From the NCBI GenBank assembly GCA_038249055.1, contig JBBRWS010000006.1, forward strand, positions 927 to 64,926: 64,000 bases of DNA, given 5' to 3'. A program made the position numbers and the translations under genes. This stretch comes from Minisyncoccia bacterium. Lineage in GTDB: Bacteria; Patescibacteriota; Minisyncoccia; Phycocordibacterales; UBA9973. This document shows, piece after piece, positions 3,173 to 59,755 of this stretch (positions within the stretch are counted from its first letter, which is position 1; every line of letters starts with the position of its first letter). Under the pieces are notes generated by a model. That model saw only the letters and a list, made by a program, of their open reading frames with translations. It ran no database searches and was not told the origin of the DNA.

Positions 3173-3179
3173 AAAACTC

Positions 3180-18165: not shown

Positions 18166-18357
18166 AATTTTTATTCTAGCATTTTAGCCAAATTTTTAAT
18201 ACACACTCTGACACCATAATAAAATGAGGATCATGAGTACATTTCTTGGTCCATATTGGACCTGTACACCTTTCGTATTTTCTAAGATTGGTAAATCATA
18301 TAAAATATACTCAAGGTTTTCAAGTCCTCTCACGCAAGCCGTACCAACGGCTTGCTT

Positions 18358-18414
18358 CCGGCACCATAATTAAAAAACCAGGACTTTGTCCTGGTTTTTT
18401 AATTATGGTGCCGG
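18358..18414. terminator. Extended palindrome/bidirectional terminator embedding the tRNA-Leu 3' end
   Basis: ccggcaccataattaaaaaacc-aggactttgtcct-ggttttttaattatggtgccgg. The arms are perfect 22-bp inverted repeats and the loop is itself palindromic. The right arm is the 3' end of tRNA-Leu. Confidence 0.8.
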
Positions 18415-18490
18415 AGAGAGGACTTGAACCTCCATCCCTTGCGAGACGCGATTTTGAGTCGCGCGCGTATACCAATTCCGCCACTCCGGC
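18406..18490 (-). tRNA. tRNA-Leu (anticodon CAA), CCA encoded
   Basis: The reverse complement reads GCCGGAGTGGCGGAATTGGTATACGCGCGCGACTCAAAATCGCGTCTCGCAAGGGATGGAGGTTCAAGTCCTCTCTCCGGCACCA. Long variable arm, anticodon loop cTCAAaa. Confidence 0.9.
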
Positions 18491-26451: not shown

Positions 26452-26542
26452 ATAGAGGTCCAACCTCTACCTAAATTGAAAATAATTGAAATAAAACTGT
26501 TGATAAATAAAGGTATATTTTAGGTAGAGGTTGGACCTCTAT
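26452..26542. repeat. 24-bp perfect inverted repeats (hairpin-containing) of the GAGGTCCAACCTC family
   Basis: atagaggtccaacctctacctaaa at 26452-26475 and tttaggtagaggttggacctctat at 26519-26542. Each arm is itself a palindrome (tagagg-tccaa-cctcta). Located between divergent/convergent gene ends. Confidence 0.85.
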
Positions 26543-28030: not shown

Positions 28031-28036
28031 AAATGA

Positions 28037-30235: not shown

Positions 30236-30247
30236 ATATTATTTTTA

Positions 30248-30460
30248 TTATAACAACAAACGAGGAGCGCATGCAAATAAATACCAATTTATTTGCATTG
30301 CGTCCGAGAGCAGTTGTTCTATAGTACTCTATATAACAACAAGAAAGGAGCATAAGCAAATTAATTAATATTTATTTGCTTAATGTCCGAATGCCGTTGT
30401 TATATCGTAATCGATATAACAACAAGAAAGGAGACAAGCAAATATTGAATTCTTAAATTT
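30248..30460. repeat. Tandem palindromic repeat array (about 2.5 units of about 82 bp) upstream of the T4CP-like gene
   Basis: Units begin with ataacaacaa(g/a)a(a/c)(g)gag at 30253, 30336 and 30416. Each has an internal hairpin gcaaataaat..atttatttgc. A perfect 12-bp inverted repeat gttgttatatcg-taa-cgatataacaac sits at a unit junction. Confidence 0.75.
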
Positions 30461-30561
30461 AATAATTGACAGACTTATGCATTATGATAGTATTAAAACA
30501 AATATAAAGTTCATCATAAGAGTTTTAAATAGTTCTAGTATTTACTTTAAATCAATACCGT

Positions 30562-38359: not shown

Positions 38360-38797
38360 ATGTCTAATCCACAACCAAACGAGAATATACCTGTTAAAAA
38401 AATCCATATACTTATGATTGATGACGACCCAGAAATGAGACGTCTTTTTGGTGGGTGGCTAACGATTCTAGGATATGAAATTATTTATGCTTCTGATGGC
38501 AACGAGGGTCGTGAGACAGCTCGACGTCTTCAACCAGATTTAATCCTAATGGATGAAAGAATGCCTGTTATGGATGGCATCGAATCCGCAACAAGAATGA
38601 AATCAGAAGATCCAACAAAAAATATTCCAATAATACTTTTTACTAATGAAGATTTTTCTTTAGAAGCTGAAAAAATGGTAAAAGATATAGGTATAGATGC
38701 TTATGTTCATAAATCATCTGATTTTAGTGTTATTAAAAAAATTATTAAAGATATTTTAGAGAAAAAAGGAATATCTGTTACCCCTCCAAATAAATAA
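38360..38797 (+). CDS. Single-domain response regulator receiver (CheY-like)
   Basis: IHILMIDDDPEMR...DLILMDERMPVMDG...K. No output domain. Confidence 0.8.
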   Translation: MSNPQPNENIPVKKIHILMIDDDPEMRRLFGGWLTILGYEIIYASDGNEGRETARRLQPDLILMDERMPVMDGIESATRMKSEDPTKNIPIILFTNEDFSLEAEKMVKDIGIDAYVHKSSDFSVIKKIIKDILEKKGISVTPPNK

Positions 38798-38809
38798 AAC
38801 TATTAATAA

Positions 38810-38862
38810 TAAAAAATAGAGGTTGTACGTCTATGGAAGACGTCCAACCTCTATTTTTTTAT
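38810..38862. terminator. Bidirectional terminator formed by a GAGGTTG(G/T)AC-family palindromic element
   Basis: aaaaaatagaggttgtacgtcta-tggaa-gacgtccaacctctattttttt, between convergent genes. Confidence 0.8.
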
Positions 38863-38872
38863 TATTTTATAT

Positions 38873-39850
38873 TTATTCCCATTCAAATTTTCTTCCAAAA
38901 TGTCCCCACGTGCAAGTATCAGAAAATTTAACAACATCCAATTTCAAGTGATTATGTATCCCCTTTGGAGTTAAATCGTAATCAGTTATTTCTACTTCTT
39001 TTCCATCTATTACAGCCACAGCCATTACTGGCTCACTCTTACCTATTGCATAAGCAAGCTTTGTATATACTTCTTTCGCATTATGCTTCTTTAGTAAGTC
39101 CACAGCTATTTTACGAGCCATATAAGCACCAGAGCGATCTACTTTTGTATAATCCTTACCAGAGAAAGAACCTCCTCCAATTGTAATCTCTGGTCCATAG
39201 TTATCTACTATCAATTTTCTTCCAGAAAGTCCTGTGTCTGCATCAAATCCACCTTGATTCCATTCTCCCGCAGGATTTATAAGATATTCTTCTGATTCAA
39301 TAATATTTTTTACAAGTTCTAAAAGTTTATCGTTTTTAGTATTTTGAAAACTAGCTACGACTGTAGTAACGACACCATTATCTACTGTCACTTGAGTCTT
39401 TCCATCATAAGGATATACTTCAAATATTTTCTGACATAAATTTCGGGCAAGATTATATTCGAGAGGTAAATATGTATCAGTCTCACTTGTAGCATAACCT
39501 TTCATTATTCCTTGGTCTCCCGCTCCACCCGTATCAACTCCTTGTGCTATTTCTGGACTTTGTAAAACTATATTCGACAAAATTTTAAAATCTTTACCTA
39601 CTATTTTTTTTATAATAGCTTCTATGTCTGGATTTGATTTTGAAGTAACTTCTCCATTGATGGCTACCAGATTATGCCCACCCATTACTTCTATAGCACA
39701 ACGACTATTCTTATCTCCTTCTAAATATGCATCTAAAATACTATCCGCAATAAAATCACATATTTTATCTGGGTGCATTGGACTCACAAACTCTGCAGTT
39801 TTTTTACTCATGCTTGATTTATAAGGAAGAATGACTATATAAATCGGCAT
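38873..39850 (-). CDS. metK: S-adenosylmethionine synthetase (short form)
   Basis: Near the N-terminus: FVSPMHPDKICDFIADSILDAYL (the GHPDK motif). Also GGGAFSGKD. The likely start is the internal ATG (MSKKTAEF..., about 39811). Total length is about 312-325 aa. Confidence 0.8.
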   Translation of the reverse strand: MPIYIVILPYKSSMSKKTAEFVSPMHPDKICDFIADSILDAYLEGDKNSRCAIEVMGGHNLVAINGEVTSKSNPDIEAIIKKIVGKDFKILSNIVLQSPEIAQGVDTGGAGDQGIMKGYATSETDTYLPLEYNLARNLCQKIFEVYPYDGKTQVTVDNGVVTTVVASFQNTKNDKLLELVKNIIESEEYLINPAGEWNQGGFDADTGLSGRKLIVDNYGPEITIGGGSFSGKDYTKVDRSGAYMARKIAVDLLKKHNAKEVYTKLAYAIGKSEPVMAVAVIDGKEVEITDYDLTPKGIHNHLKLDVVKFSDTCTWGHFGRKFEWE

Positions 39851-40165
39851 CCTGTTAAATAAGATTTAACAGGGTTGATTAAAATATAATACGCTTCGCT
39901 CCTTTATTTTAATTAAAAAATTCCTCATAATGAGGAAAGATATAGATGACTAGTCTTATCTTTCCATAATAATACACTTGCATTATTTGGCTGGATTTAG
40001 CACCTTGCTTTCGCGGGTTGCTGATGGGTCATTGAGCCAGTTGCTCTCGCCATACTCTTGATAACTAACTATTTAGTTGTAATTTTATTATAGCATAATT
40101 TTATAAACAAAAATATTTCCATAAAAAAAATAACGAGGATATATCCTCGTTATTTTTTTATAATA

Positions 40166-40396
40166 TTAATTTTTCCATTTAACTTGAAATTCAAGTTCTT
40201 CTTCTTTTTTCCCTTTTTCATGTTCAATGTTTATAATCGCATCTTTGGGAACAGTTATTTTTCCACCTGCTACTTGAATAGAAAAACTTTTACCTGATTC
40301 TAGAGAGTCAGCTAAACGACGTAATTTTTTAATAAATTCTTTTTTAGAATAAACTTTTTCTATATCTCTTGTTTTAAATTTTTTTATCATATACAT
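40166..40396 (-). CDS. Amphi-Trp domain-like small protein
   Basis: 76 aa. The C-terminus is ...HEKGKKEEELEFQVKWKN, and SFSIQVAGGKITVPKDAIINIEHE resembles the amphi-Trp family layout. Confidence 0.4.
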   Translation of the reverse strand: MYMIKKFKTRDIEKVYSKKEFIKKLRRLADSLESGKSFSIQVAGGKITVPKDAIINIEHEKGKKEEELEFQVKWKN

Positions 40397-40426
40397 ATAT
40401 TACCATAAAATATTGGTAATTAATTT

Positions 40427-41503
40427 TTATAATATTTTATAGAATACCTTAATTATTAAATATAAAATATAATCAAACCATTTCATCTTATAAGTTTTTG
40501 TATCAAAAATCACAACATCTTTTGCCCATTTTTTTATAATTTCTGAAATTTTATGAATGGCAATAGGTTCATTAAAAAAAATACCAACTTCTGAGTTTAA
40601 TTCAAATGATAAATAGTCCAGATTATTAGAACCTACAATTGCCTCCTTGCTATCTATTACCATTATTTTTGCATGATTCATTTGAGGTTCTAGATAAAAA
40701 TTTATACCAAGTTTTGATAACTTATGCATATAAAAATGATTTACTCTATCAATAAAATAACTATCTGTATTTCTAGGCACCAAAATATCAACAGATACTC
40801 CTCTTAAGCTTGCCTGATGCAACGCTCCTATTAGCCAACGTTTTGGCATTAAATATGGAGTTACTATAGTGATACTTACTTTTGCATGAGACAAATGTTT
40901 TTTGTAAATCTTTTTTAAATTATATTTATTTTTAATTGGAGAATGCTCTACAAGCCAATCATGTAAAGTGTCTTTGAAAATTTTACTTTTATTATGAATA
41001 AGGATTAATGAGTCCTTTCCTCCACACTCAGCATAAACTTTAGCAAAAGATTTTACTATAAAAAAGACAAGCTGTCCCTTTACCTGAACCATCAAATCAT
41101 CCCAAAGAGATGCACTTTGGTGAAAATTTACTCCTCCAATAAATGCAATTTTTTCATCAACAATTAAAATTTTACGATGAGTTCTATGTAAAAAATAACT
41201 TTGAAAAATTAATTCTACCCCTGCTTCTTTGAGTCCAAAAATAACTTTATTACTTAAGCTATAACTTCCAAAGAAATCCAAAATAACTTTAACCCGGATT
41301 CCATTTTTAGCTTTTTCTTTCATTAATTCCAAGAAATTAAAGTCCACCATGTCATCCTGAAAAATATACATTTCAAGGTATATTGATTTCTTAGCAGAAA
41401 ACATTATGTCATACATTGCCTGCCAAGATTTCTGTGAATTCGCAAAAAATTTATAAGGCATAAAGATATTATACACTAAATATTTATTATTAACGGGCAT
41501 CAA
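40427..41503 (-). CDS. Phospholipase D family protein (cardiolipin synthase-like), two HKD motifs
   Basis: HKD1 is HRKILIVDEKIAFIGGVN, HKD2 is HAKIMVIDSKEAIVGSNNLD. Confidence 0.75.
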   Translation of the reverse strand: MMPVNNKYLVYNIFMPYKFFANSQKSWQAMYDIMFSAKKSIYLEMYIFQDDMVDFNFLELMKEKAKNGIRVKVILDFFGSYSLSNKVIFGLKEAGVELIFQSYFLHRTHRKILIVDEKIAFIGGVNFHQSASLWDDLMVQVKGQLVFFIVKSFAKVYAECGGKDSLILIHNKSKIFKDTLHDWLVEHSPIKNKYNLKKIYKKHLSHAKVSITIVTPYLMPKRWLIGALHQASLRGVSVDILVPRNTDSYFIDRVNHFYMHKLSKLGINFYLEPQMNHAKIMVIDSKEAIVGSNNLDYLSFELNSEVGIFFNEPIAIHKISEIIKKWAKDVVIFDTKTYKMKWFDYILYLIIKVFYKIL

Positions 41504-41587
41504 TGTTGAATAAATTTATTATTGACAAACATTAAATATTAATGAATAATCAGAGAAAATAGAAACTTAAAAAGGAAGGAGAGCTAG

Positions 41588-42283
41588 GTGAACAAACCTA
41601 AAATTGCACAGCCAGAGAAAGAAAAATTCGTACTTACACAAGACGATTTCTTGTTTCTCGAAAGAATGTTACTCAATATGGGGTACCGGGAAGAAACTAC
41701 AACTTACTCAAAAAGACTTTTTGAACGTCTCAATCTCATACCTCCAAGAGTAATCACGGGGAGAGAAGCGACTTATATTTATAAAAGTCGAGAAGTTGGC
41801 AACAACTACACAGTTATCATTCATACCACTTATTTGAAAGCATCAAAAAAATGGAGAGATACGAGTACTGACGTTGGATGGTGTCTGATTGTTGAAGGTG
41901 ATCAAGCAAAATATTTTGCAAAGCCATTTTCAAGAACAAAAGGATTCATACTTAAGTTTTTACGTTACGCTTGGGTTACTAAATGGAAAGTAGACCATCG
42001 TCCGCTATGCCCACAGTGCCAAGACTTTATGCACATTGTAAAAAAAGTAGAACCTCGAGGGTATTACTGGGCTTGTCGCAACAATGTACGGCACGACGAA
42101 AATAAGCCAGTTTTCTCACCTTGGGATTTTGGTCTCCCCTTTAAGGCTTCCAAGTTTGTAAGCATTCGGAGGGACTATACAAAAAGGTACAATGACAAAA
42201 ACAAAAAAGAAGGAAAAGTTCCTACTCCTGCTCGTAAAATAAGAAAGCCTTGGGAAATAAAAAAACCTGGAAATCTTAATTAG
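41588..42283 (+). CDS. Hypothetical protein with CxxC...CxxxxxH zinc-finger-like region and basic C-terminus
   Basis: 231 aa. CPQCQDF...YYWACRNNVRHDE. Confidence 0.35.
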   Translation: MNKPKIAQPEKEKFVLTQDDFLFLERMLLNMGYREETTTYSKRLFERLNLIPPRVITGREATYIYKSREVGNNYTVIIHTTYLKASKKWRDTSTDVGWCLIVEGDQAKYFAKPFSRTKGFILKFLRYAWVTKWKVDHRPLCPQCQDFMHIVKKVEPRGYYWACRNNVRHDENKPVFSPWDFGLPFKASKFVSIRRDYTKRYNDKNKKEGKVPTPARKIRKPWEIKKPGNLN

Positions 42284-42295
42284 CGAAATTACAAA

Positions 42296-42331
42296 ATGCG
42301 TGTCGTCACTAGTGACGACACGCGTTTTATT
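42296..42331. terminator. Rho-independent terminator (bidirectional)
   Basis: acgcgtgtcgtcactagtgacgacacgcgttttatt. Perfect 13-bp arms. Confidence 0.8.
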
Positions 42332-42361
42332 GTTTATGGATTCTTGCTATTCTATGATAAT

Positions 42362-43153
42362 TTAATATCTCCTAAAACTTCCTTGCGTGCGCAATACTGG
42401 CTTATAATATGAACTAAATGATTGTCTATTATTATTTTGAATTGAATTTGCTATATTTTTATTCGCATATATATTAGCAACATGTTCATCGACTGTTATA
42501 TTTATTGTCTGACAAGCATATGATAATTTCCCTATTGCAAACTGAACTTCATTTTCATTTAATTTTTCTTGATTGTATTTTTTAATGCATTCAATCAACT
42601 TATTGAGATAAACCACGTTTTCAATTGGTTCTGTTTTTATTTCAGCTTCCCCTGTGAATACAACAATATTATAAAAATTATCTTTAGCAAAAGGCATCAA
42701 ATCTTTCAGCGCCATCAAGTGCCCATAATTTTGATGAATAGGATTTTGAAATTTATATTTAATTGCCCCTGGCATTGATTGTGTCCATGTTGATTGATTT
42801 TTACTACCAAAAATCCACCCTTTTAAATCTTTACTTTCTAAAACAAAAATTCCAAATTTAGAAACAATTATATGATCAATTTGAGTTGACCCATTATTTT
42901 TAGAATTTATAATAATATTATTAAATATAAAATAATCAGTATAACTTAATTCAGCAGCAAGCAGATCTGCAACTTTTTGTTCTCCAGAATTTAAACCTTC
43001 CATATAGCATTTACATGCATGTTTATTTTTATTATTATATCTAATTTTTTGTAATTCGTATGGGAAACTTCTATCTTTAAACAGCCATTTAAAAAACTTT
43101 ATAATCAAATATATAATTATTACATCTAATATCAAATAAAATAATATATCCAT
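42362..43153 (-). CDS. NERD (nuclease-related domain) protein with N-terminal TM
   Basis: N-terminal hydrophobic helix. The NERD core is QIDHIIVSKFGIFVLESKDLKGWIFGSKNQSTW. Confidence 0.55.
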   Translation of the reverse strand: MDILFYLILDVIIIYLIIKFFKWLFKDRSFPYELQKIRYNNKNKHACKCYMEGLNSGEQKVADLLAAELSYTDYFIFNNIIINSKNNGSTQIDHIIVSKFGIFVLESKDLKGWIFGSKNQSTWTQSMPGAIKYKFQNPIHQNYGHLMALKDLMPFAKDNFYNIVVFTGEAEIKTEPIENVVYLNKLIECIKKYNQEKLNENEVQFAIGKLSYACQTINITVDEHVANIYANKNIANSIQNNNRQSFSSYYKPVLRTQGSFRRY

Positions 43154-43270
43154 AATTTAATATTTTTTCATTTGATTATTTATACTGTGTTTCATAATAA
43201 ATATTATAACATAAGTTTATCTCTTGTAGATATAGGCTTCACCTTTATCTACATACAATATTATTAATTT

Positions 43271-43507
43271 TCAAAAATTTAATAATCCTACTTCTTTTTT
43301 GCTAATTCTTTTTTCACAATTTAAACAAAAAAGTTGTTGCGATTCACAACTATCGTCGCCATAAAAATCTTCCCATTGTTTTGTATTTAACTCCAAAGAA
43401 TAATAATGCTTTTCTGTTTGAACAATGCCTACCTTCTCATTAGTATGTTTACAATTTTTGCAAGTATATTTTCTATTTTTCATATTTAATAAATATTGAG
43501 TTTTCAT
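43271..43507 (-). CDS. Small C4 zinc-ribbon protein
   Basis: 78 aa. CKNCKH...CLNCEKR. It overlaps the upstream gene end by 35 nt, which suggests translational coupling. Confidence 0.4.
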   Translation of the reverse strand: MKTQYLLNMKNRKYTCKNCKHTNEKVGIVQTEKHYYSLELNTKQWEDFYGDDSCESQQLFCLNCEKRISKKEVGLLNF

Positions 43508-43961
43508 AATTAGAAATACCTTTATATTTTTTTATTAAAAACAAACATTCTTCATAAGCATCTGCTTTTCCACCGATAAATTCATTTAACCCATATTCTT
43601 CAATTTTTTCACTTTTATACACATCCTCTTTCCATTTATTTCTATAATTAAAAGCTAATTTTTTTATGTGTTTTTCTAATGAATTATTAGTAATTTTTTG
43701 TATAAATCCTTGAGCCATTAATTTAAGAGTTTCTTTTTTTAAATTCTGCAAATTTTCCCAAAGTTCAAAAGTTTGGTATATTTCGTCACCATTAATCATT
43801 TTCCATTCGTCTGGTTCAATTTCTATAAAATCATCGTCTTCTGGTGTGTATTCTTTGCATACAACTAAAAATGGGAAATAAAAATTGGGATGTCTATATA
43901 AATATTTTAAAATTTGTATTGCTAGATCTCTTGATATTTTCATATAAAAAAATAAAATCAT
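43473..43961 (-). CDS. Hypothetical protein
   Basis: 162 aa ORF between the DpnI-like and Zn-ribbon genes. No family recognised. Confidence 0.4.
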   Translation of the reverse strand: MILFFYMKISRDLAIQILKYLYRHPNFYFPFLVVCKEYTPEDDDFIEIEPDEWKMINGDEIYQTFELWENLQNLKKETLKLMAQGFIQKITNNSLEKHIKKLAFNYRNKWKEDVYKSEKIEEYGLNEFIGGKADAYEECLFLIKKYKGISNYENSIFIKYEK

Positions 43962-44008
43962 TAACTTAATAATGATCTGATCATTGATCGAATTTGAATT
44001 AAAGTCAA

Positions 44009-44776
44009 CTACTTCAATTTATATTTACCTGCATCAATAAAATCAAGGTAATTTTTATCTCTTAAAAATTGTAATTGCTGACGAATTTTATCTTTAATGT
44101 GTTTATTTTCTGGATGAATGTTTTTTAATTCAGACTCAAACTTGTATATATCCGCTAATGTAAACTCTTTTTTATTTAAAGAATCAATACAATTCATAAT
44201 GTCTAAAATCCAACCCTTTGCATCTACTTTTTTAATTTTCTTTAAAAAAACTGTTTTTTGCCATTTTTCTAAAACCTCTTTTTTAGAAATCTCTTTACCA
44301 TTTTCAACATAAAAAACCTGTCCTGCTTTTGGTATTTTTGAAAAAATTATATTTGAACCAACCCAACCAGCTCTTCGAGCAGTTTTTTTTAATGGCTTCC
44401 TCTTTTCAATAATTTCTGGAATAAAAAAATGCTTAGGGATGATAAAAAAATCATTTACAAACAATGTTTCTAAATATCCCATAAAAAAGAAATTGGGTTT
44501 ATTTTTAGAACTTATTCTTTCAATCATTTTAGAATAAGCCCCAGCAGGTATAGTTTTTCTAATTTTTCCTTTTTTAGATTTCAATTCAAAATCTTCAATA
44601 CATTTTTTACAATAAAAATCAGCAACTGGCTTATTATTTTCGTATTCTTCAATATTAGTATTTCCACAATTTGGACAATATATTTGTTTTAAAACCCAAT
44701 TTTCACTTATAACTCTTATTTTTTGGGTTTCACTTAAATATCCAATCCCTAGTTTTTTATCTAAAGTTAAATTCAT
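44009..44776 (-). CDS. DpnI-like (Dam-replacing family) methyl-directed restriction endonuclease
   Basis: N-terminal YCPNCGN...PVADFYCKKCIEDFELKSKKGK and NPNFFF, RKPLKKTARRAGW, IRQQLQFLRDK. These strongly resemble DpnI-family proteins as I remember them (recalled, not searched). Confidence 0.6.
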   Translation of the reverse strand: MNLTLDKKLGIGYLSETQKIRVISENWVLKQIYCPNCGNTNIEEYENNKPVADFYCKKCIEDFELKSKKGKIRKTIPAGAYSKMIERISSKNKPNFFFMGYLETLFVNDFFIIPKHFFIPEIIEKRKPLKKTARRAGWVGSNIIFSKIPKAGQVFYVENGKEISKKEVLEKWQKTVFLKKIKKVDAKGWILDIMNCIDSLNKKEFTLADIYKFESELKNIHPENKHIKDKIRQQLQFLRDKNYLDFIDAGKYKLK

Positions 44777-44889
44777 ATATTTTTAAATAATTGTTCAAAC
44801 ATATAATAATCCAATTATACTATTTTTGCTCCATATTCTCAATAATATTTACAACTTTCAAAATATACCAAAAATGCTATTATACACAT

Positions 44890-45489
44890 ATGCTCTATAC
44901 ACAAAAAATTCAACATGCGATTCGGTTCGCTCTTAAAACTCACGAGGGATATCAAAAACAAAAGCGAAAAGGTAAAGATGTCCCCTATATTGTGCATCCT
45001 TTAACAGCCTCAATTATACTTGCATCTGCGGGAGCATCTGAGGATATAGTCATTGCTGGATTACTACATGACACTATTGAAGATAGTATTGAAGAAAAGA
45101 AGGTTACAAAAGAATTGATTGTGAGTAGATTTGGAGAAAATGTTTACAATTTAGTTTTAAGTGTAACTGAACAAGATAAATCTTTGTCATGGGAAGAAAG
45201 AAAAACTGAAGCAATGGAACATATCAAAACTTTTTCAAATGATTCCGTACTATTAAAATCTGCAGATATAATTGCAAACACTTCTGAAATTATTGATGAT
45301 TACAGCAAAAAAGGAGAAGAAGTATTTGAAAGATTTGGAGCCACAAGAGAAAGATTTTTAGAAATGAACATAAAAATAATAGAAACTATTATAAAAAAGT
45401 GGCCAGAAAATCCCCTAGCCGATAGCCTAAAAGATGTATTGGAAAAAATAAAAATAATTGCAAACAATAAAATAATAAATAATTTGTAA
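44890..45489 (+). CDS. Stand-alone (p)ppGpp hydrolase-type HD domain protein (small alarmone hydrolase-like)
   Basis: HEGYQKQKRKGKDVPYIVHPLTASIIL....IVIAGLLHDTIEDS matches the RelA/SpoT HD hydrolase motif. The start is placed at the internal ATG (MLYTQK). The track ORF 5' extension looks spurious. Confidence 0.65.
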   Translation: MLYTQKIQHAIRFALKTHEGYQKQKRKGKDVPYIVHPLTASIILASAGASEDIVIAGLLHDTIEDSIEEKKVTKELIVSRFGENVYNLVLSVTEQDKSLSWEERKTEAMEHIKTFSNDSVLLKSADIIANTSEIIDDYSKKGEEVFERFGATRERFLEMNIKIIETIIKKWPENPLADSLKDVLEKIKIIANNKIINNL

Positions 45490-45513
45490 TATAATTTTAT
45501 TGTTTGTACTGAT

Positions 45514-45548
45514 TCTAAAAAACAACAAATTTATTTGTTGTTTTTTAG
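45514..45548. terminator. Rho-independent terminator (bidirectional)
   Basis: ctaaaaaacaacaaatttatttgttgttttttag. Confidence 0.75.
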
Positions 45549-46043
45549 AATCCTTCCCCGTTTCGTCATTTATGACTCATCAGACAAAATGCACATTTTG
45601 TTACGGGAGCTACAAAAAAGAAAAAATTCTTTTTTGTAGCGTCTCAAATTAATAAATTATATATAATATTTATTAATATAATTAATTTTAGAATTACAAC
45701 CCGCAAAACCCTAGTAGTGTAATCGTACCGTTATCTAGGTTATGCTCATCAATGTATATCGGCTTGAAATGCGCTCGCCGCTTTCATCCACCTCGTGGAT
45801 TACTCATAAAATAGAAATTCTTTCTTAGAAAGAATCACGTATTTCAATATACTCTGCCCAAGTTATTATTGAACCATTATACTCAACTAAATCAGTATCA
45901 GGTCTTAGAATAACTTCAGCTTCTTTTAAATTTTCCATTTAAAAAAAATTGTTTTTTGACGCTGAAAGAATATACTTCTTTCAAGGTTTAAATTGTATCT
46001 GTAAAGATCAACTCATGTATAGTATACCACAAAAATTACTTAT

Positions 46044-46176
46044 TGACAAATGGTCATATAAATATAAAATTCTATTTACCATATTTTGTGCGAGATAGCG
46101 CACAAAATATGTTTTTATAAAATAATATAAAAAAGTATTTAATCATAAAAAACACCGTTAGGTGTTTTTTATGATT
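46044..46176 (+). ncRNA. Candidate small RNA unit: promoter (TTGACA-N16-TAAAAT), a 12-bp-stem 5' hairpin and a Rho-independent terminator
   Basis: ttgaca at 46044-46049 and a -10-like taaaat about 16 nt later. Perfect palindrome atattttgtgcg-agatag-cgcacaaaatat at 46081-46110. Terminator aaaaaacaccgttaggtgtttttt at 46149-46176. No ORF. Confidence 0.35.
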
Positions 46177-46207
46177 TTATTTAAATCGTGAATTTTTTTA
46201 ATAAATA

Positions 46208-47188
46208 TTATTCTTTCTCACAAAAATATATCGGACCATCTTCTAGCCCAAAATAATCTATTTTACTTTTATCTAAGGTAGAAATAAACATATCGGCTTT
46301 AACTTTAAACCCAGCCCCTCTTAATTTATCTGGAAAATCATTTCCGTATAATCTCACATGGTCAAATTGCCAAAAAGCTTTAGTCCTTTCCTCAGGGGAA
46401 ATTATAGAAAAATCTTCATAAGTCTGGGCTCGACTAGTATCAATAGGAACATCTATAATTGCAAAGCCTCCCTTTTTTAATACTCTATAAAGTTCTGACA
46501 TCGCATTTTTATCATTTTCAACGTGTTCTAAAACATGCGAACAGAAAATAATATCAAACGATGAGTCTGAGAATGAAAGATGTGTTATGTCTTCTACTCT
46601 CATTGCGTTATTTTTGTCTATATCAACACTTAAATAATCAATATTCTTATACGATTTAAACAGCTTTGTAATTAATGGTTCTGGTGCAAAATGTAGAACT
46701 TTAATTTGCTTATTTGTTGGAATTACTTTTTTAAGATATAAAAAGAATGATCTATGCCTGGGTTGAGAAAGACAATTTGGACAAGTTGAATTTACATATA
46801 TATGACCATACCCACAATCAAAATCAACAAATTTTTCCCCATACCATCCACATACATTACACTTTACTTTGTATAATTTTGGGAATAAAAAATGCATTAG
46901 AGACAACCAAAAGATATATATTTTTTTAAATAAATTTAAATGATATCTAAAAAAGAAACTTAGAGTTAACCCAAGTACCAAAATAAAAACTTGGACAATT
47001 GGTGGTAAGGCACAGTTTCCATAAAATACTACAATTGTCCCCTTACCTAACGCCCAATTTAAATAGCTTATCTCTATTAAAGAATGAATAATGAGAGCAA
47101 AAAAAAGACCTAAAAATAAATAAGATATCGCATATAATAATAATTTTGTTTTTCTTTTACTATTTTTAATTCTCTTGATTATATCCAT
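46208..47188 (-). CDS. Membrane-anchored class I SAM-dependent methyltransferase with zinc-ribbon
   Basis: N-terminal TMs, then CNVCGW...CPNC. Methyltransferase motifs VLHFAPEP...DIIFCSHVLEHV...LKKGGFAII. Confidence 0.6.
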   Translation of the reverse strand: MDIIKRIKNSKRKTKLLLYAISYLFLGLFFALIIHSLIEISYLNWALGKGTIVVFYGNCALPPIVQVFILVLGLTLSFFFRYHLNLFKKIYIFWLSLMHFLFPKLYKVKCNVCGWYGEKFVDFDCGYGHIYVNSTCPNCLSQPRHRSFFLYLKKVIPTNKQIKVLHFAPEPLITKLFKSYKNIDYLSVDIDKNNAMRVEDITHLSFSDSSFDIIFCSHVLEHVENDKNAMSELYRVLKKGGFAIIDVPIDTSRAQTYEDFSIISPEERTKAFWQFDHVRLYGNDFPDKLRGAGFKVKADMFISTLDKSKIDYFGLEDGPIYFCEKE

Positions 47189-47393
47189 GGTAATTTTATT
47201 ATAACAAGAAATTATTCTTTAGCATAAATCTTAGTTTCAGAATCTATGTAGAATTGTTATAATAACACCATATGGATCCCGTAAGAGATGTGCTCGTTAG
47301 AATTTTCGGGATAGTTTAAAATATTACATGGTTTACATTATTAAATAAAAATAATAAGATACGTCCCACCTTTGGGGGACTATCTCAAACGGG

Positions 47394-49943
47394 ATGGATA
47401 ATAAAATTGAGATATTGGAACTTAAAGGTCTTTCTGAATTGGAAGCGGATATTGTTTTAAAAAAGGATGGATTTAATGAATTACCTACTCAAAAAAAGAA
47501 GGGTGGTTTTTCTATTTTAATTAAAATACTTTCCGAGCCAATGCTTCTTTTACTCGTTTCGGCTGCAACAATTTATTTGTTTCTAGGTGAAATAAAAGAT
47601 GCATTATTACTTGTCTTTTCTGTGTTTATCGTTATAGGTATTACTTTTTACCAAGAAAGAAAAACAGAAAGAACTTTAGAGGCACTCCGAGAGTTATCTA
47701 GTCCCAGAGCTCTAGTTATCCGCGATGGTGTACATAAAAAAATTGCAGGGCGTAATGTTGTTGTGGGTGACATAGTAATAATACACGAGGGAGATAGAGT
47801 GCCTGCTGATGCAGTAGTCCTCTCTTGTGAAAATCTATCTATAGATGAATCTCTTTTAACTGGAGAATCAATGCCCGTAAGAAAAATAGAATGGGATAAA
47901 AAAATGGAAACAACCAGACCAGGAGGAGATGATTTACCGTTTATCTATTCTGGATCACTCGTAACTAGTGGACGTGGTGTTGCTCAAATAACTTCTACTG
48001 GTTTAAATACTGAGATTGGTCAAATTGGAAAAAGTTTGGAAAGTATTAAAGACGAAGATACTTTACTACACAAAGAGACAACTAAAATAGTTCGAGTTGT
48101 CGCTATTGTTGGAGTTATTCTCTGTGCTCTGGTTGTTGCATATTATTTCTTTGTTGAAGGAAGTATTGTAAATGGACTTTTAGCTGGATTAACTTTAAGT
48201 ATGGCTATTATTCCTGAAGAATTTCCTATTGTTCTTATTATCTTTTTAACTCTGGGTGCTTGGAGAATTTCTAAGAGAAATGTGCTTACACGAAGAGCTG
48301 CTGCTATAGAAACACTCGGAGCTGCCACTGTACTCTGTACAGACAAAACCGGAACTCTAACATTAAATAAAATGGAGTTGAGTGGGCTTTATGTAGACAA
48401 AACATTTTGTGAAATAAATAATTCTACAAAAAGTGAGCTACCTGAACAATTTAAAACTCTACTTGAATATGGGGTTCTGTCTAGTCAAAAAGATCTTTTT
48501 GACCCTATTGAAAAAGAATTAAATAGAGTTGGGACTCTGTTTCTTACAAATATAAAAAATAGAGATATTAATTGGTCTCTAGTAAAGGAATATCCACTAT
48601 CTAAACAACTACTTGCGATGTCTCATGCTTGGCAGTTAAAAGATAGTAAAGAAATTCTTCTCTCTTCAAAAGGAGCACCAGAAGCTATTTTAAAACTATG
48701 CCATATTGAGAACGACCAAAAAGCTGAAATATTATTGAGAGTAAAAGAAATGTCAGAAAAAGGATTGCGTGTCCTTGGAGTTGCTCGTGGAGTAGCAACA
48801 CTTGATAGTCTCCCTGAAAATCAGAGCGATTTAAATTTTGAATTTGTAGGATTACTTGGATTTATTGACCCAGCCCGCGAGACAGTTCCCCTCGCAGTTA
48901 AAGAAGTTTATGAGGCTGGAATGAGAGTGATAATGATTACTGGAGACTACCCAGGAACAGCTCAATTTATAGCAAAACAAATTGGTATTAAAAATACAGA
49001 TGAATATCTGACTGGAGAAGATTTAGAAAAAATTGACCCTCTTGATTTAAAAGAAAAAATAAAAACGGTAAATATTTTTGCGAGAGTTTTTCCTGAACAA
49101 AAATTATTAATTATAAATGCCTTAAAAGCTAATAATGAAATAGTGGCAATGACTGGGGATGGAGTAAATGATGCACCAGCACTAAAAACGGCGCACATAG
49201 GTGTGGCGATGGGCCAAAGAGGTACAGATGTAGCGCGTGAAGCATCATCACTTGTTTTACTTGATGATGATTTTTCTTCAATAGTTACTGCTGTTCGACT
49301 AGGAAGAAGAATTTATGACAACATAAAAAGAGCGATGGGATATTTGATAGCTGTCCATGTTCCTATTGCAGGAATGTCTTTACTGCCACTTATTTTCAAT
49401 CTACCAATAGTACTATTCCCTGCTCATATTGCATTCATGGAATTTATAATAGACCCAGCTTGTTCAACAGTCTTTGAAGCTGAAGATGAAGATGCGGATA
49501 TTATGAAAAGAAAACCTAGAAATCTGCACCAATCTATGTTTAATTATAAAACTGTAATGGTTAGCTTACTTCAAGGATTTGGTATTTTACTCGTAACATT
49601 TGCTATATATTACTTTGTTATTAAAAATGGAAGAAGCGAACTTGAAGCCCGCTCTTTTGCTTTTTCATCACTAGTATTATCTAACTTATTACTTATTGCT
49701 ATTAATCTATCTTGGAAACATAGTATTATTAAAATAATTACTTCTGGTAATAAAATATTGTATGCTGTATTTATTGGTACAATACTAAGTCTTATGGCTG
49801 TAATATATATTCCTTTTATGGCTGACCTATTTCATATGGCACCACTTTACTTGAATGACTTTGTGCTAATAATTTCAGCAGTTTGTATAAGTTTAATGTG
49901 GTTTGAGGTATTAAAATTTTTTAATATTAAATTATTACGATAA
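47394..49943 (+). CDS. P2-type cation-transporting P-type ATPase (Ca2+/Mg2+-like)
   Basis: DKTGTLT phosphorylation motif, TGES actuator motif (LTGESMPV), PEEFP in M4, GDGVNDAPAL hinge. 849 aa with 10 TMs. Confidence 0.9.
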   Translation: MDNKIEILELKGLSELEADIVLKKDGFNELPTQKKKGGFSILIKILSEPMLLLLVSAATIYLFLGEIKDALLLVFSVFIVIGITFYQERKTERTLEALRELSSPRALVIRDGVHKKIAGRNVVVGDIVIIHEGDRVPADAVVLSCENLSIDESLLTGESMPVRKIEWDKKMETTRPGGDDLPFIYSGSLVTSGRGVAQITSTGLNTEIGQIGKSLESIKDEDTLLHKETTKIVRVVAIVGVILCALVVAYYFFVEGSIVNGLLAGLTLSMAIIPEEFPIVLIIFLTLGAWRISKRNVLTRRAAAIETLGAATVLCTDKTGTLTLNKMELSGLYVDKTFCEINNSTKSELPEQFKTLLEYGVLSSQKDLFDPIEKELNRVGTLFLTNIKNRDINWSLVKEYPLSKQLLAMSHAWQLKDSKEILLSSKGAPEAILKLCHIENDQKAEILLRVKEMSEKGLRVLGVARGVATLDSLPENQSDLNFEFVGLLGFIDPARETVPLAVKEVYEAGMRVIMITGDYPGTAQFIAKQIGIKNTDEYLTGEDLEKIDPLDLKEKIKTVNIFARVFPEQKLLIINALKANNEIVAMTGDGVNDAPALKTAHIGVAMGQRGTDVAREASSLVLLDDDFSSIVTAVRLGRRIYDNIKRAMGYLIAVHVPIAGMSLLPLIFNLPIVLFPAHIAFMEFIIDPACSTVFEAEDEDADIMKRKPRNLHQSMFNYKTVMVSLLQGFGILLVTFAIYYFVIKNGRSELEARSFAFSSLVLSNLLLIAINLSWKHSIIKIITSGNKILYAVFIGTILSLMAVIYIPFMADLFHMAPLYLNDFVLIISAVCISLMWFEVLKFFNIKLLR

Positions 49944-49982
49944 TAATATTGTCTTTTATCATTAAAAACATATAATAAAACT

Positions 49983-50918
49983 ATGAATGAAAAATATATA
50001 CAACCAGTAGAGAAAAAACCCAGTATTTTAGATAGTATTGAAAATCAAATAGCTCTAGCAAATAAACTTACAAATGTTTATGAAAATAGACCAGATATTG
50101 ATTCTTTTAAAGGTGCTATGGCTGGAACAAAATTTGAAAATGATTACTCCGAAGAAACAATTGAAAAAAATAAACTCTATGTAGAACAAACTAGGGCTAA
50201 GATAGATGAATCAAATAGTAATTTTGGTAAAGAAAGACTTGAACATCTCGAGGGTGGATTCCAACTTTCTGAAATACTTCAAGCAATGATTGTTGACCGT
50301 CTAAACAAACATTGGTTTAAAGATTGTCAGGCTATCATGACATCTGACTATGATGACCTCGCTTGCGGAATCGATGCGGTAATAAAACATGACAAAGGAG
50401 GATATCTCGGTATTGCTCTTGATTTTACTGTCACTAATCAAGATAAAAAAATATACGAGAAACTTCAAAAAGGTTGGGCGCAAAATACAGAAGAAGGTAA
50501 AATACCAACTGTTAAATATTTTGAAGATCCTGATACAAAAGAAAAAGGAAGATTGCTCGTTCCTAAGTTTATTATTGGTGGGACTAAAAAAGACGTAGAA
50601 GAACTTGCAAATGCATATCTCACAAACAATACTGAAGTACTTGAGAACCATCCATTTAAATATATGATGCTACTCCAAATCGAGGAACAGTTACAAACTG
50701 TACTTGACTACTATGAAGCAAATAGTGATGACCCTAAAATCCAATTTGCAAAAAAACAATATGAGAAAATTCAGACTATCTTAAGAAATATGAAAAATGA
50801 AATTCAGTCTGATAAAAAAATGCACGAAAATACAGACTTACATGAATACACAAAATCAAGCGTCGCACTTGATATGATGAGAAGATTTAGAATAATGAGA
50901 GAGAAGAATTCAAAGTAG
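49983..50918 (+). CDS. Hypothetical soluble protein
   Basis: 311 aa ORF with a terminator after it. No family recognised. Confidence 0.4.
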   Translation: MNEKYIQPVEKKPSILDSIENQIALANKLTNVYENRPDIDSFKGAMAGTKFENDYSEETIEKNKLYVEQTRAKIDESNSNFGKERLEHLEGGFQLSEILQAMIVDRLNKHWFKDCQAIMTSDYDDLACGIDAVIKHDKGGYLGIALDFTVTNQDKKIYEKLQKGWAQNTEEGKIPTVKYFEDPDTKEKGRLLVPKFIIGGTKKDVEELANAYLTNNTEVLENHPFKYMMLLQIEEQLQTVLDYYEANSDDPKIQFAKKQYEKIQTILRNMKNEIQSDKKMHENTDLHEYTKSSVALDMMRRFRIMREKNSK

Positions 50919-50928
50919 TAAATTTAAT

Positions 50929-50962
50929 ATAAAAAACCTCCGCATCAAGGAGGTTTTTTATA
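50929..50962. terminator. Rho-independent terminator
   Basis: aaaaaacctccgcatcaaggaggtttttta. Confidence 0.8.
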
Positions 50963-51066
50963 TAATATCTGCCAAAATACACATTAATTTAAACAAATGA
51001 TATAATGTGCATATTATAAAAAGTCGTTAAAAATTTAATTTTATTAGAAAAAATCTAATTAATTCT

Positions 51067-52113
51067 ATGGATGAAAACAAGAGAGAAAGAAAGGTCATAA
51101 AAATATCAAAGAAAAAGTTTAAAACTTTTATTTGGATCATTATTTTGATTATTATACTCTGGGCAGTTAAATCAGTTGTATTTAATTCATTCGGAGTTGG
51201 AAGAATGACAGGTTCAAGTATAACACCTAGTGATGGCATAAGTGAAGATTATTATAACCCATCATCTCAAAATATGATGCCACCTGATTATTATGACCGA
51301 GGATACCAAAAACCATCTATTTCTGATACTAGAGAATTTTTAAAGACTAGTTATTCTGCATCAATAAAGACAAGGAACGTGAAGGATGTTATGCAAGATG
51401 TAACTAATATTGTTAAAGGAGCAGATGGTAGAATCGATAATTCTTATAGTTCCGAAAAAAGTGGACGTATTAGTTTTGTCGTAGCTAAAAGCAAATTTGA
51501 AGAATTTAAAAATCAAATAGAAAGTATAACTCACAAAAAACTTTATACAGAAACTATCTCATCTCAAAATCTACTCAGTCAAAAACAAGGGATAGAAGAG
51601 CAAACTGGAAATATAGTAAATACATTAACTAATTTACAAGATCAAAAGACAAGTCTAGAGACAAAACATATCCAAACAGTCACTGCTATAAACAAAGAAC
51701 TTACTAGAATTAAAGCTGAACTAGTAGCGGTTAGAGCAGTTATTGCCACAACTACAGAACCTTTAGTTTTAGATTCTTTTGTTAGCCAAGAAAATTCTTT
51801 AGTTAAACAAGAAAATACTCAAAAACAAAAATTGGTGATAGAAAATAATAGCTATATAGCTCAAAGCCAAAGTCTTGAAAATTCTATCAATGATGCTAAC
51901 AACGGCCTAATAAATGTAAATAATCAAGACAGCCAATTTACAGATACTATTGAAACTGTAAATGGAAGTGTTAGTGTTGATTGGATTAGCTTATGGGAAA
52001 TGGCAGATATATTCTCCCCTATTTCTCCATTTATTATCATAATAATCCTAGTAATAATAATTATTATGTATCTTAAACGTAGAGGAAGTATTCCACGAGT
52101 TGAATTCCAGTAA
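51067..52113 (+). CDS. Bitopic coiled-coil membrane protein (hypothetical)
   Basis: Basic N-terminus plus TM (FIWIIILIIILWAV), a long coiled-coil-like middle, and a C-terminal TM (FSPISPFIIIIILVIIIIMYL). Confidence 0.4.
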   Translation: MDENKRERKVIKISKKKFKTFIWIIILIIILWAVKSVVFNSFGVGRMTGSSITPSDGISEDYYNPSSQNMMPPDYYDRGYQKPSISDTREFLKTSYSASIKTRNVKDVMQDVTNIVKGADGRIDNSYSSEKSGRISFVVAKSKFEEFKNQIESITHKKLYTETISSQNLLSQKQGIEEQTGNIVNTLTNLQDQKTSLETKHIQTVTAINKELTRIKAELVAVRAVIATTTEPLVLDSFVSQENSLVKQENTQKQKLVIENNSYIAQSQSLENSINDANNGLINVNNQDSQFTDTIETVNGSVSVDWISLWEMADIFSPISPFIIIIILVIIIIMYLKRRGSIPRVEFQ

Positions 52114-52128
52114 AATTAAATAATTAAA

Positions 52129-52174
52129 ATAGAGGTTGGACGTCTACGATAGACGTCCAACCTCTATTTTTTTA
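52129..52174. terminator. Bidirectional terminator formed by a GAGGTTGGAC-family palindromic element
   Basis: atagaggttggacgtcta-cga-tagacgtccaacctctattttttt, between convergent genes. Confidence 0.8.
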
Positions 52175-52183: not shown

Positions 52184-53008
52184 TTATTTTTTTACAGAAG
52201 ACAAAGATACAATAAATTTAGTTCCTTTATCTTTACCTTCACTCTCCACTCTAATAGAACCACCCATTTTTTCTACGAGTTCTTTACATATTGAGATTCC
52301 AAATCCTGTACCTTTTTCTTTATTTGTTCCATCAGTACTAACTCCAGCATTTTCAAAAAGTTTTTTTATTTGATCATTGGTCATTCCAACTCCATTATCA
52401 TTAATAGATACTTCAACTTTATCATTAATTTTTTCAGCAGAAACAGAGACTTCCCCGCCTTCTTTGGTAAATTTAAGTGAATTAGAACAAAGATTTCTAA
52501 TTACAGTTTGTAGCATATTTGAATCTGCAAATATTTCCATATCATTTGGAACTTCATTTGTAAGTTTTATATTTTTTTGGTTAGCAATACTTTGCAAAGG
52601 TGAAATTGCATTATTCACTTGATCAGATAATTTTATTTCTAAAACTTCTATTTTCATACCATCCTGCTGAAGTCGACTCCAGATTAATAAATCTTCGAGT
52701 AATTTAAGGGTGGCTTCATTATCTTTTGAAAGTGACTCCAACATAATAGCTAATTCTGCTTTATTGATTGAGCCGTACTTTATATCTTCAAGTAAAAATT
52801 TGGTTACAACCGCCGCGTTCCCTATTGGATTAATTAAATCATGAGCTATTATACGAAACAATTTTGTCATATTTTCCGACTTATTTTTTAAAGCTTCATT
52901 TTCAGCTTCTAATTGTTCTACCTTAAGAGCCAAAGACCATTCCTGTTCAATAGGCATTACATTGGGCTTTTCTTCCTTTTTATTTAAATTTTCCATAATT
53001 ATATCCAA
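52184..53008 (-). CDS. Soluble sensor histidine kinase (HisKA + HATPase_c), no TM
   Basis: H box RIIAHDLINPIGN. N, G1 and G2 boxes are present (NLCSNSLKFT, NDNGVGM, GTGFGISICKELV). Confidence 0.8.
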   Translation of the reverse strand: MDIIMENLNKKEEKPNVMPIEQEWSLALKVEQLEAENEALKNKSENMTKLFRIIAHDLINPIGNAAVVTKFLLEDIKYGSINKAELAIMLESLSKDNEATLKLLEDLLIWSRLQQDGMKIEVLEIKLSDQVNNAISPLQSIANQKNIKLTNEVPNDMEIFADSNMLQTVIRNLCSNSLKFTKEGGEVSVSAEKINDKVEVSINDNGVGMTNDQIKKLFENAGVSTDGTNKEKGTGFGISICKELVEKMGGSIRVESEGKDKGTKFIVSLSSVKK

Positions 53009-55027: not shown

Positions 55028-55120
55028 TGGTAGAGGTCCAACCTCTACCAAAAAAATACCCATATAAATAAGGATATAATAAATTAAAAAACTCAAAAAG
55101 GTAGAGGTCCAACCTCTACC
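55028..55120. repeat. Two identical 21-bp palindromes ggtagaggtccaacctctacc about 71 bp apart
   Basis: At 55029-55049 and 55100-55120, between the ddl start and the uvrC stop. Same sequence family as 26452-26542. Confidence 0.85.
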
Positions 55121-59678: not shown

Positions 59679-59755
59679 CGTGATATAGCTCAGTTGGTAG
59701 AGCACTAAGCCTAAAAAACTCAGAGGTCGGGAGTTCAAGTCTCTCTATCACGACG
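59679..59755 (+). tRNA. tRNA-like gene with canonical acceptor, D and T arms but a 9-nt anticodon loop (CCUAAAAAA) and an A-C mismatch in the anticodon stem
   Basis: cgtgata-ta-gctc-agttggta-gagc-a-ctaag-cctaaaaaa-ctcag-aggtc-gggag-ttcaagt-ctctc-tatcacg-a. The architecture parallels tRNA-Lys/Thr. Terminator at 59797-59829. Confidence 0.5.

Follow-up and report, generated by a model that had tools for sequence, protein, structure and literature searches.

A probable REP/REPIN-type hairpin family with predicted bidirectional terminator copies in a low-GC Patescibacteria genome

We investigated two long hairpins, referred to as T1 and T2, which lie between convergent gene pairs in a 64-kb stretch of DNA from an ultra-small Patescibacteria bacterium (hereafter the window, meaning the whole stretch), together with the shorter palindromes of the same stretch that contain the same sequence words. 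From our data we consider it probable that the hairpins are copies of a repeat family of the repetitive extragenic palindromic (REP) type, arranged as doublets like the REPINs (REP doublets forming hairpins) or bacterial interspersed mosaic elements (BIMEs), that the family was spread in this low-GC genome by an enzyme of the REP-associated tyrosine transposase (RAYT) type, and that its head-to-head copies function as transcription terminators. This is a known kind of element in a group where none has been described and involves no new principle; REP/RAYT systems are textbook knowledge for Proteobacteria. A literature search with the literal sequences, and for REP/RAYT systems or uptake sequences in Patescibacteria, returned nothing relevant. 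The window has a GC content of 30%, and its gene content and closest protein homologues are Nomurabacteria/Paceibacteria-like, within the Patescibacteria.

All copies are built from a basic unit, a mini-palindrome of 15–17 nt with the pattern (T/C)AGAGGT-[TGG or TGT]-AC(C/G)TCT(A/G), which can also be written (G)TAGAGGT-TGG/TGT-ACCTCTA(C). In the window we distinguished four architectures (Table 1): single units, which form short hairpins; head-to-head doublets with a loop of 3–5 nt, represented by T1 and T2; tail-to-tail doublets, in which the units are joined by a conserved linker of 7–12 nt (CGAAGCCAGCTA or TGGGGCCACAT) and of which one lies in a spacer and four lie in genes (two in uvrC, one each in uvrB and tgt); and nested forms of ~95 nt. 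Altogether the window contains 13 exact units besides degenerate ones, about one per 3–5 kb, and the sites of the family are six intergenic and four in-gene ones, which is a high in-gene proportion. The first-pass annotation had connected the hairpins with the in-gene copies through shared words, and both a count and a formal alignment support this connection. The word GAGGTTGGAC, allowing at most one mismatch, was found 20 times compared to 1.1 ± 1.0 expected matches (100 shuffles, maximum 4), an 18-fold excess. Aligned with one another, 15 tail-to-tail doublets taken from the window and from further genomes had a mean column identity of 87%; their arms pair in 95.7% of the cells, with both partners changed in four pairs. 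Intergenic and in-gene copies have the mini-palindromic unit, its G/T asymmetry and, in the longer forms, the linker in common, and they form a single repeat family. A doublet almost always combines a TGT unit with a TGG unit, resulting in one mismatch in the long stem, and the same polarity (TGT arm, ACGGG-like loop, CCA arm) was observed in 10 of 14 head-to-head copies from many genomes, which argues for copying from a master sequence and not for convergence.

For the catalogue of units we used the window and 27 Patescibacteria-like loci. In L034 and L122 the units are gathered in clusters. A scan of genome collections with a 16-mer pattern yielded at least 106 loci, most of which are noise (about 2000 chance matches are estimated for 596 Gb); second copies or extended palindromes were observed only in Patescibacteria-like loci and in 0 of ~80 chance matches in other phyla. 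Neither doublet type was present in the viral contigs scanned, which gave no sign of phage carriage. Rfam, applied to the whole window at gathering thresholds and to positions 2800-5700 in E-value mode, reported only four tRNAs and a SAM riboswitch and no family for the hairpins or the ~95-nt forms. An origin of the word from the 16S rRNA 3' end or from a tRNA was considered as well and found no support.

Next, we analyzed the two long hairpins and their surroundings. They had been annotated as perfect bidirectional terminators between convergent gene pairs, each followed by a T-run; letters and open reading frame (ORF) map confirmed the places, the gene arrangement and the T-runs, whereas the perfect stem proved true for T2 but not for T1. 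T2 has a perfect GC-rich stem of 18 bp, or 21 bp counting the A-T pairs, around the loop CGA. In the T1 stem GAGGTTGTAC faces GTCCAACCTC with a single internal mismatch, and as a doublet T1 reads GAGGTTGTACGTCT-ATGGA-AGACGTCCAACCTC, closed by TA/TA pairs. T1 lies between a response-regulator gene (38360-38797, plus strand) and metK (38873-39850, minus strand), whose leader holds the SAM riboswitch reported by Rfam, and T2 between a DUF4349-like ORF (51067-52113, plus strand) and a histidine-kinase gene (52184-53008, minus strand). RNA folding gave -28.4 and -29.0 kcal/mol for the two strands of T1 (z = -8.9 and -10.5 versus shuffles) and -32.6 and -33.1 kcal/mol for those of T2, with z values of both hairpins together ranging from -8.9 to -11.1. 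A terminator scan reported T2 (52126-52170) on both strands. The T1 copy is identical in an independent assembly (L107), and exact-protein look-ups with MetK and UvrC of the window yielded no long contig; a Logan contig of 1.9 kb, identical to the window, was all that turned up.

In order to compare the positions of head-to-head doublets we scanned metagenomes for this arrangement, the ORF contexts being simple open-frame calls. Twelve contigs were obtained, representing 10 distinct loci with 28–37% GC, all of them intergenic; these metagenome loci, the window and a further locus (L034) make up 13 independent loci. The doublet is situated between convergent ORFs at eight of them (binomial P = 0.006) and at most 100 nt from a gene 3' end at 12, while it was found at 0 of 13 loci between divergent genes and at 0 of 13 inside a gene, so that the suspected enrichment at the 3' ends of convergent genes was borne out. 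A- or T-runs of at least 4 nt (mostly 4–8 nt) occur on both sides of 11 of 14 head-to-head copies, and in 12 of 14 the stem is extended outward by 4–16 perfectly complementary bases that vary from locus to locus. The T2 site has an orthologue in two related loci (L114/L123, neighbour protein 70% identical), where the hairpin is retained with 27 of 28 arm nucleotides identical; in the coding DNA next to the site, identity to L114 is no more than 74% and 62%. After the uvrC stop, another relative (L108) has a hairpin at the same position as the window, TTTTAGGGGT-CCA-ACCCCTAAAA, in which AGAGGT/ACCTCT has become AGGGGT/ACCCCT, a change on both sides of the stem. For the window itself we observed that nearly all convergent spacers of at least 49 nt contain an A-tract, a hairpin and a T-tract, each with a stem sequence of its own. 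As to the annotated terminator function, the anatomy (stem, A- and T-runs, both strands) and the position were recovered, and on these grounds T1 and T2 are predicted to be bidirectional intrinsic terminators, termination itself being what we infer from them.

The mobility that had been suggested for the family is supported by comparisons between orthologous sites and by units flanking a RAYT-like gene. UvrB of the window is 89% identical to that of L108 except for a single gap of 32 aa, which at the DNA level corresponds to a clean 96-nt block of units versus an empty site. Among the 120 closest UvrC homologues (393–493 aa) the family is located at differing positions or absent. The spacer orthologous to that of T1 in two relatives (L109/L111, MetK 92% identical) contains two other hairpins and no family word. 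Insertion polymorphism of the family between relatives is shown by these comparisons, and mobilization by a RAYT is suggested by the sequences flanking the enzyme gene described below. The two hairpins of the relatives stand in tandem at L109:4962-5035 (the same in L111): the first has a 21-bp stem, TCTTGCTACAATTTCTGCA-CC-TGCAGAAATTGTAGCAAGA, while the second, AAAAAATAGCACTCCGACC-TA-GGTTGGAGTGCTATTTTTT, has the ATAG...CTAT ends and GGTTGGA in common with the family and may, judged by these letters, be a diverged member of it. The same two linker hot spots of UvrC harbour at least five other in-frame insertion families in the homologues P0001-P0120, with the peptides NSSRFTLKGSDTDKN, FQKVLGSPRDYxRPDHFEKH, GPRTREDEGPDHSK, LGSPKHGGGG and PARPHDGSGAGG, and uvrC of the window (55125-56507) also contains NPFQKVFARPNDV adjoining a REP copy. 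These genomes seem to host several small insertion repeats.

The transposase gene was recognized in related genomes. A Saccharibacteria metagenome-assembled genome (MAG; L014), which was retrieved by the motif alone, contains an ORF of 232 aa (109-807) that is bracketed by inverted units, carries a third unit in frame and matches the Pfam family Y1_Tnp with 32.4 bits (cut-off 23). Inverted units bracket the RAYT-like gene in four more loci, making five in total: the motif-retrieved L095 and L067, L125 with TGTAGAGGTTGGACCTCTACA upstream and TGTAGCGGTCCAACCTCTACA downstream, and L126 with the L125-type stem and the loop TAA/TTA. In a more distant homologue (L127) the upstream stem is a different one, TTTGGCGGT-CCG-ACCGCCAAA, and two units inside the gene are changed likewise. 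Copies of the gene's own hairpin in frame (L014:562-582, L125:3455-3480, L127:3180-3214 and 3478-3498) encode conserved peptides of the GGPT(S/A)K type and change together with the flanking units between lineages; a role in self-regulation, or an origin of the repeat from these units, is possible. GTAG is found in the single units of the window (GGTAGAGG...) and in the units flanking the RAYT-like genes of L125 and L126; it stands at both ends of the perfect palindrome, and CGTC is found in the long-type arms.

The RAYT-like protein family comprises 1751 homologues, and among the 120 listed the named ones are mostly from Patescibacteria; some are named ‘REP element-mobilizing transposase RayT’ by JGI. 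The motifs YYHxYNRG, NH(Y/F)H, LFQG and YVNLN are invariant or nearly so. An AlphaFold2 model of the protein (pLDDT 84, pTM 0.82) was compared to known structures with Foldseek, and the best match in the PDB was 4ER8_A (E = 2.8e-6, TM 0.67), a complex of the REP-associated tyrosine transposase of E. coli with a REP hairpin, followed by TnpA of IS608 and ISDra2. Sequence and profile searches of the protein against the PDB gave no match, and the link to 4ER8 comes from the fold comparison only. In one Paceibacterota MAG (L127:1127-5137) a TrwB/TraG-like ATPase gene and an LTD/PKD-domain gene flank the RAYT-like gene. In the window (26543-30235) the corresponding ATPase and LTD/PKD genes are adjacent at a distance of 6 nt and enclose no transposase, and the inverted pair of single units at 26452-26542 follows directly after the LTD gene.

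Table 1. Copies of the repeat family in the window. A dot in the strand column marks features given without a strand.
Feature	Positions	Strand	Sequence and remarks
T1, head-to-head REP doublet	38816-38854	.	ATAGAGGTTGTACGTCTA-TGGA-AGACGTCCAACCTCTAT; A-run of 6 before, T-run of 7 after
T2, head-to-head REP doublet	52129-52167	.	ATAGAGGTTGGACGTCTA-CGA-TAGACGTCCAACCTCTAT; A-run of 4 before, T-run of 7 after
Inverted pair of single units, REPIN-like	26452-26475 + 26519-26542	.	24-nt arms 100% complementary, 43 nt apart
Direct pair of single units	55029-55049 + 55100-55120	.	identical 21-mers GGTAGAGGTCCAACCTCTACC, 50 nt apart, uvrC-ddl spacer
Tail-to-tail doublet in uvrC	55577-55619	-	in frame, peptide REVQHQAGSGCCTS; inner stem compensated variant ACATC/GATGT
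Tail-to-tail doublet in uvrC	55925-55966	-	in frame, peptide RGPTSNGFGGCTP; linker hot spot, empty in many orthologues
Composite 96-nt insertion in uvrB	61509-61604	-	at least 3 units, in frame, 32 aa
Tail-to-tail doublet in tgt	63721-63762	-	in frame, peptide LEVQPQLASEVVPL; diverged orthologous copy in L108
Intergenic tail-to-tail doublet	2977-3018	.	inner stem variant CCAC/GTGA; upstream of pilB
Nested form, ~95 nt	3078-3172	.	termini GGTACAACCT...TTGGACCTCTA; central loop CGAAGCCA as in the 40-nt doublets
Second nested form, ~95 nt	5396-5492	.	opposite orientation on the plus strand; ~-35 kcal/mol, z ~-5

Regarding the single units, the first-pass annotation had listed identical palindromes in pairs at two places; coordinates and copies are correct, and the first pair is inverted while the second is direct. 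The inverted pair has a long-range fold of -41 kcal/mol and is located directly after the stop of the LTD/PKD-domain gene (26543-28030, minus strand) and upstream of a methyltransferase gene (25639-26406, minus strand). The uvrC-proximal unit of the direct pair continues on the minus strand with TTTTTGAGTTTTTT, which looks terminator-like. RNA-level, intron-like excision of the in-gene copies was considered and rejected: each of the four keeps the reading frame open, and the lengths are those expected of translated insertions. The 5' regions that contain the two ~95-nt forms belong to type IV pilus genes, pilB (1177-2886, minus strand) and pilM/N (5569-7020, plus strand), and the forms are oriented alike relative to the downstream pilus gene, which with two cases may be chance or a shared leader or operator.

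How the family could be maintained can be outlined as follows. An enzyme of the RAYT type, a Y1/HUH tyrosine transposase, would recognize the folded single-stranded hairpin, cut and join it, and thereby copy or move the unit, which would owe its polarity to the mismatch in the stem and to the GTAG-like head. Around a putative Y1 gene of this genome the bracketing unit would be GTAGAGGT-TGG-ACCTCTAC. Selection would then decide where copies persist. In a head-to-head doublet the transcript of either strand would fold into a GC-rich stem of 16–21 bp followed by a U-tract and cause a factor-free stop in both directions; such doublets would persist only behind genes because they stop transcription from both sides. 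Tail-to-tail doublets would survive in frame in tolerant protein linkers, as in uvrB, uvrC and tgt, because they have no U-tract.

Several points weigh against this reading. Within the 64-kb window no transposase of any kind was found (Pfam on 47 ORFs; tblastn), and a RAYT gene, if this genome still has one, would lie elsewhere in it. The RAYT-like protein does not reach the NCBIfam RAYT equivalog NF047646 (21.4 bits versus a cut-off of 80); it is a distant clade and not an equivalog of the proteobacterial RAYTs. At the uvrB insertion neither a target-site duplication nor a cut site is readable, the most being an ambiguous TGA. The GTAG head belongs to the stem, and many copies have CAG, ATAG or TTAG in its stead. 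Only two of the ~11 usable convergent spacers of the window carry the family stem. The locus-specific palindromic flanks could result from insertion into older terminator hairpins, or from ‘perfecting’ by template switching, and either would give rise to apparent compensatory changes without selection; insertion into the loop of an older hairpin fits these flanks, and so does later outward template switching. With insertion into older hairpins, the suggested co-option as terminators may have run the other way. Similarly, the 27/28 arm identity at the T2 site could reflect homogenization or re-insertion instead of purifying selection. A further step, which we regard as speculative and rather doubtful, is that the REPIN-RAYT pair is more than selfish DNA and has been domesticated to supply terminators: through a Y1 enzyme that copies hairpins, portable cassettes of 45 nt (A-tract, REP doublet and T-tract) would be seeded, selection would hold them in place, and the hairpin copies in the enzyme's own gene would be self-regulatory. 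This is suggested because the T2 arms are nearly unchanged while the flanking genes have diverged, and self-regulation of the enzyme because the in-frame hairpin copies in its gene co-vary with the flanking ones. The idea presupposes that chance GC-rich stems may be rare in AT-rich Patescibacteria genomes, and in a bolder variant the unit may double as a recognition tag for DNA uptake by competent, nucleotide-scavenging cells.

Of the other explanations, spreading as a palindromic repeat without any dedicated transposase, by recombination, gene conversion or template switching, appears unlikely; the association with RAYT-like genes would then be secondary, REPs merely accumulating around the gene. 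The window, with no RAYT in it, and the uvrB insertion, with no target-site duplication found, would agree with this, and the outward palindromic extensions fit template switching. Long-type units contain CGTC (GGACGTCT), and both CGTC REPs and the Rickettsia palindromic elements (RPEs), which the in-frame intragenic copies resemble, occur without a dedicated transposase (PMC3733652). However, five independent loci have a RAYT-like gene bracketed by inverted units or a local variant of them, the change of the flanking stem in L127 and L126 is matched by the units inside the gene, and the best fold match is a RAYT bound to its own REP hairpin. The most interesting rival takes the word as a 10–13-mer resembling DNA uptake sequences, accumulated by uptake bias and recombination, with inverted pairs ending up in terminators as in Neisseria and Pasteurellaceae. 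It fits poorly, and we consider it quite improbable, although the density of the word (~0.3 per kb) falls within the range of uptake sequences, type IV pilus genes are present in the window, two of the genes with inserted copies, uvrB and uvrC, serve in repair, and the arms are strongly conserved at the orthologous T2 site. Saccharibacteria are in addition naturally competent (PMC10633639). Yet the basic unit is itself a palindrome, and nowhere in the window does the word stand alone in a non-palindromic copy; within genes the copies are insertions of 39–96 nt with a conserved linker and not codon-level substitutions; there are also nested and composite forms, and the hot spots are shared with several other insertion families; the unit brackets the RAYT-like gene and co-varies with it between lineages; and the share of convergent terminators with the unit, 2 of ~11, compares to ~55% in Neisseria (PMC1852404).

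We attach very little probability to the view that T1 and T2 are ordinary intrinsic terminators which resemble each other by shared descent of duplicated spacers or by convergence, with neither mobility nor a link to the in-gene copies. A terminator hairpin of some kind is indeed present in each of the window's convergent spacers that has a useful length, and T2 is vertically inherited, but the same 33-nt core with the same polarity recurs at 13 unrelated loci from many genomes, the word is 18-fold over-represented, the in-gene insertions have the same arms and linker, and the orthologous T1 site is occupied by other hairpins. Hardly more credible would be double-stranded operators for a dimeric DNA-binding protein conserved in Patescibacteria, with an incidental hairpin potential. 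Such operators would explain the dyad of the core (AGAGGT-N3-ACCTCT), its occurrence in both Saccharibacteria and Paceibacteria, and the fact that each of the two ~95-nt forms precedes a type IV pilus operon, with an identical orientation towards the gene, whereas the copies are found mostly at 3' ends or in genes and not at promoters, the stems run past the core with locus-specific complementary bases, changes within stems affect both sides, and the unit is tied to a transposase recognizing single-stranded hairpins. A miniature transposable element with inverted repeats (MITE) was rejected as well, given the uvrB insertion without target-site duplication and the finding of no DDE transposase in the window or beside dense arrays.

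The REP/REPIN-type reading can be compared to the known systems. The family resembles the REP/BIME/REPIN elements and RAYTs of E. coli, Pseudomonas and Stenotrophomonas in being short, GC-rich imperfect palindromes, here within an AT-rich genome, to some extent in the GTAG head of the single units of the window and the transposase-flanking copies, in the joining in opposite orientation by two alternating linker types, in the conserved stem mismatch that gives the hairpin a polarity, and in the Y1/HUH gene bracketed by inverted units (a REPtron), seen in related genomes and with 4ER8 as best fold match. The copies appear to lie mainly behind genes, in unidirectional or convergent spacers, with occasional ones in repair genes; for REPs it is likewise described that most occupy spacers between unidirectional or convergent ORFs, that they often form dimers of opposite orientation, and that replication and repair genes frequently contain intragenic copies (PMC3733652). 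In contrast to REPs, the unit is much smaller (a stem of 6–9 bp with a 3-nt loop), GTAG lies inside the stem and is not universal, and in-frame intragenic copies are prominent, the transposase genes among others having one or two in-frame units of their own (GGPT(S/A)K). A classical REP is usually restricted to a species or genus, whereas the core described here is common to lineages as distant as Saccharibacteria and Paceibacteria. The transposase differs from the known RAYTs by its length of ~220–230 aa and by a score far below the NCBIfam equivalog cut-off.

The RPEs are similar in being palindromic in-frame insertions in conserved protein genes and in spacers of a reduced, AT-rich genome, with several unrelated insertion families coexisting and the peptides placed in variable regions. 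They are ~100–150 bp long and, to our knowledge, without a known transposase, while the elements of the window have 15–96 nt, are assembled from repeats of a mini-unit and have a link to a RAYT-like gene; in sequence the two are unrelated. With the terminators built from the DNA uptake sequences (DUS) of Neisseria or the uptake signal sequences (USS) of Pasteurellaceae the family shares an over-represented 10–12-mer that forms both arms of many terminator hairpins and has further copies in genes, including repair genes. As far as we know, uptake sequences are non-palindromic words that originate where they stand and have no connection with a transposase, unlike the unit described here, which is a palindrome with insertions as in-gene copies and a transposase link. 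In Neisseria the terminator hairpins with the uptake sequence consist of two inverted uptake words (PMC1852404). Finally, T1 and T2 share with canonical bidirectional intrinsic terminators the A-tract, the GC-rich stem-loop, the T-tract and the place between convergent genes, 17–19 nt from both stops. They differ in the length of the stem (16–21 bp compared to 8–17 bp in the other predicted terminators of the window), in its derivation from a dispersed repeat, and in the conservation of sequence and structure between genomes.

To a large extent the family accounts for the odd GC-rich palindromes in these MAGs and for the differing lengths of the conserved proteins UvrB, UvrC and Tgt, and for annotation this means that short in-frame ‘insertions’ in these genomes are to be read with caution as copies of a repeat. 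The head-to-head doublet is a candidate for a compact bidirectional terminator in the genetic tools now being built for these bacteria, and the hairpin and its putative enzyme form a small, tractable pair for studying how REPs are copied.

In our analysis, we recognized several further features that are separate from the family. At 18357-18415 a perfect inverted repeat of 28 nt with a 3-nt loop overlaps with its right arm the acceptor end, including CCA, of a tRNA-Leu (18406-18490, minus strand), so that this terminator-like hairpin is built from a copy of the tRNA 3' end. ARAGORN predicts a tRNA-Phe with the anticodon AAA at 59679-59754, which is confirmed as a tRNA by Rfam and has an odd anticodon arm (…CTAAGCCTAAAAAACTCAG…); the anticodon of bacterial tRNA-Phe is normally GAA, and AAA is unusual. 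The divergent spacer 30236-30561 (326 nt) contains, at 30273-30423, two pairs of AT-rich palindromes, GCAAATAAATACCAATTTATTTGC with GCAAATTAATTAATATTTATTTGC and GTTGTTCTATAGTACTCTATATAACAAC with GTTGTTATATCGTAATCGATATAACAAC, which look like paired operators. The region 41588-44776 is a small nuclease-type island, in which 42362-43153 encodes a NERD-domain protein and 44009-44776 a DpnI-like, methyl-directed restriction enzyme, next to unannotated ORFs, and in its place the relatives L109 and L111 have GmrSD and Endonuc_Holl genes. Among the 16-mer matches in other phyla, those of four Bacillaceae loci (L013, L021, L050 and L089) occur, in Oceanobacillus and Lederbergia, in a conserved context resembling a promoter, TTGACCTT-TAGAGGTTGGACGTCT-TACAAT with a GGGTCCAAAATTTTGGACCC hairpin before it; they are unrelated to the Patescibacteria repeat and look like an operator in a long-spacer promoter.

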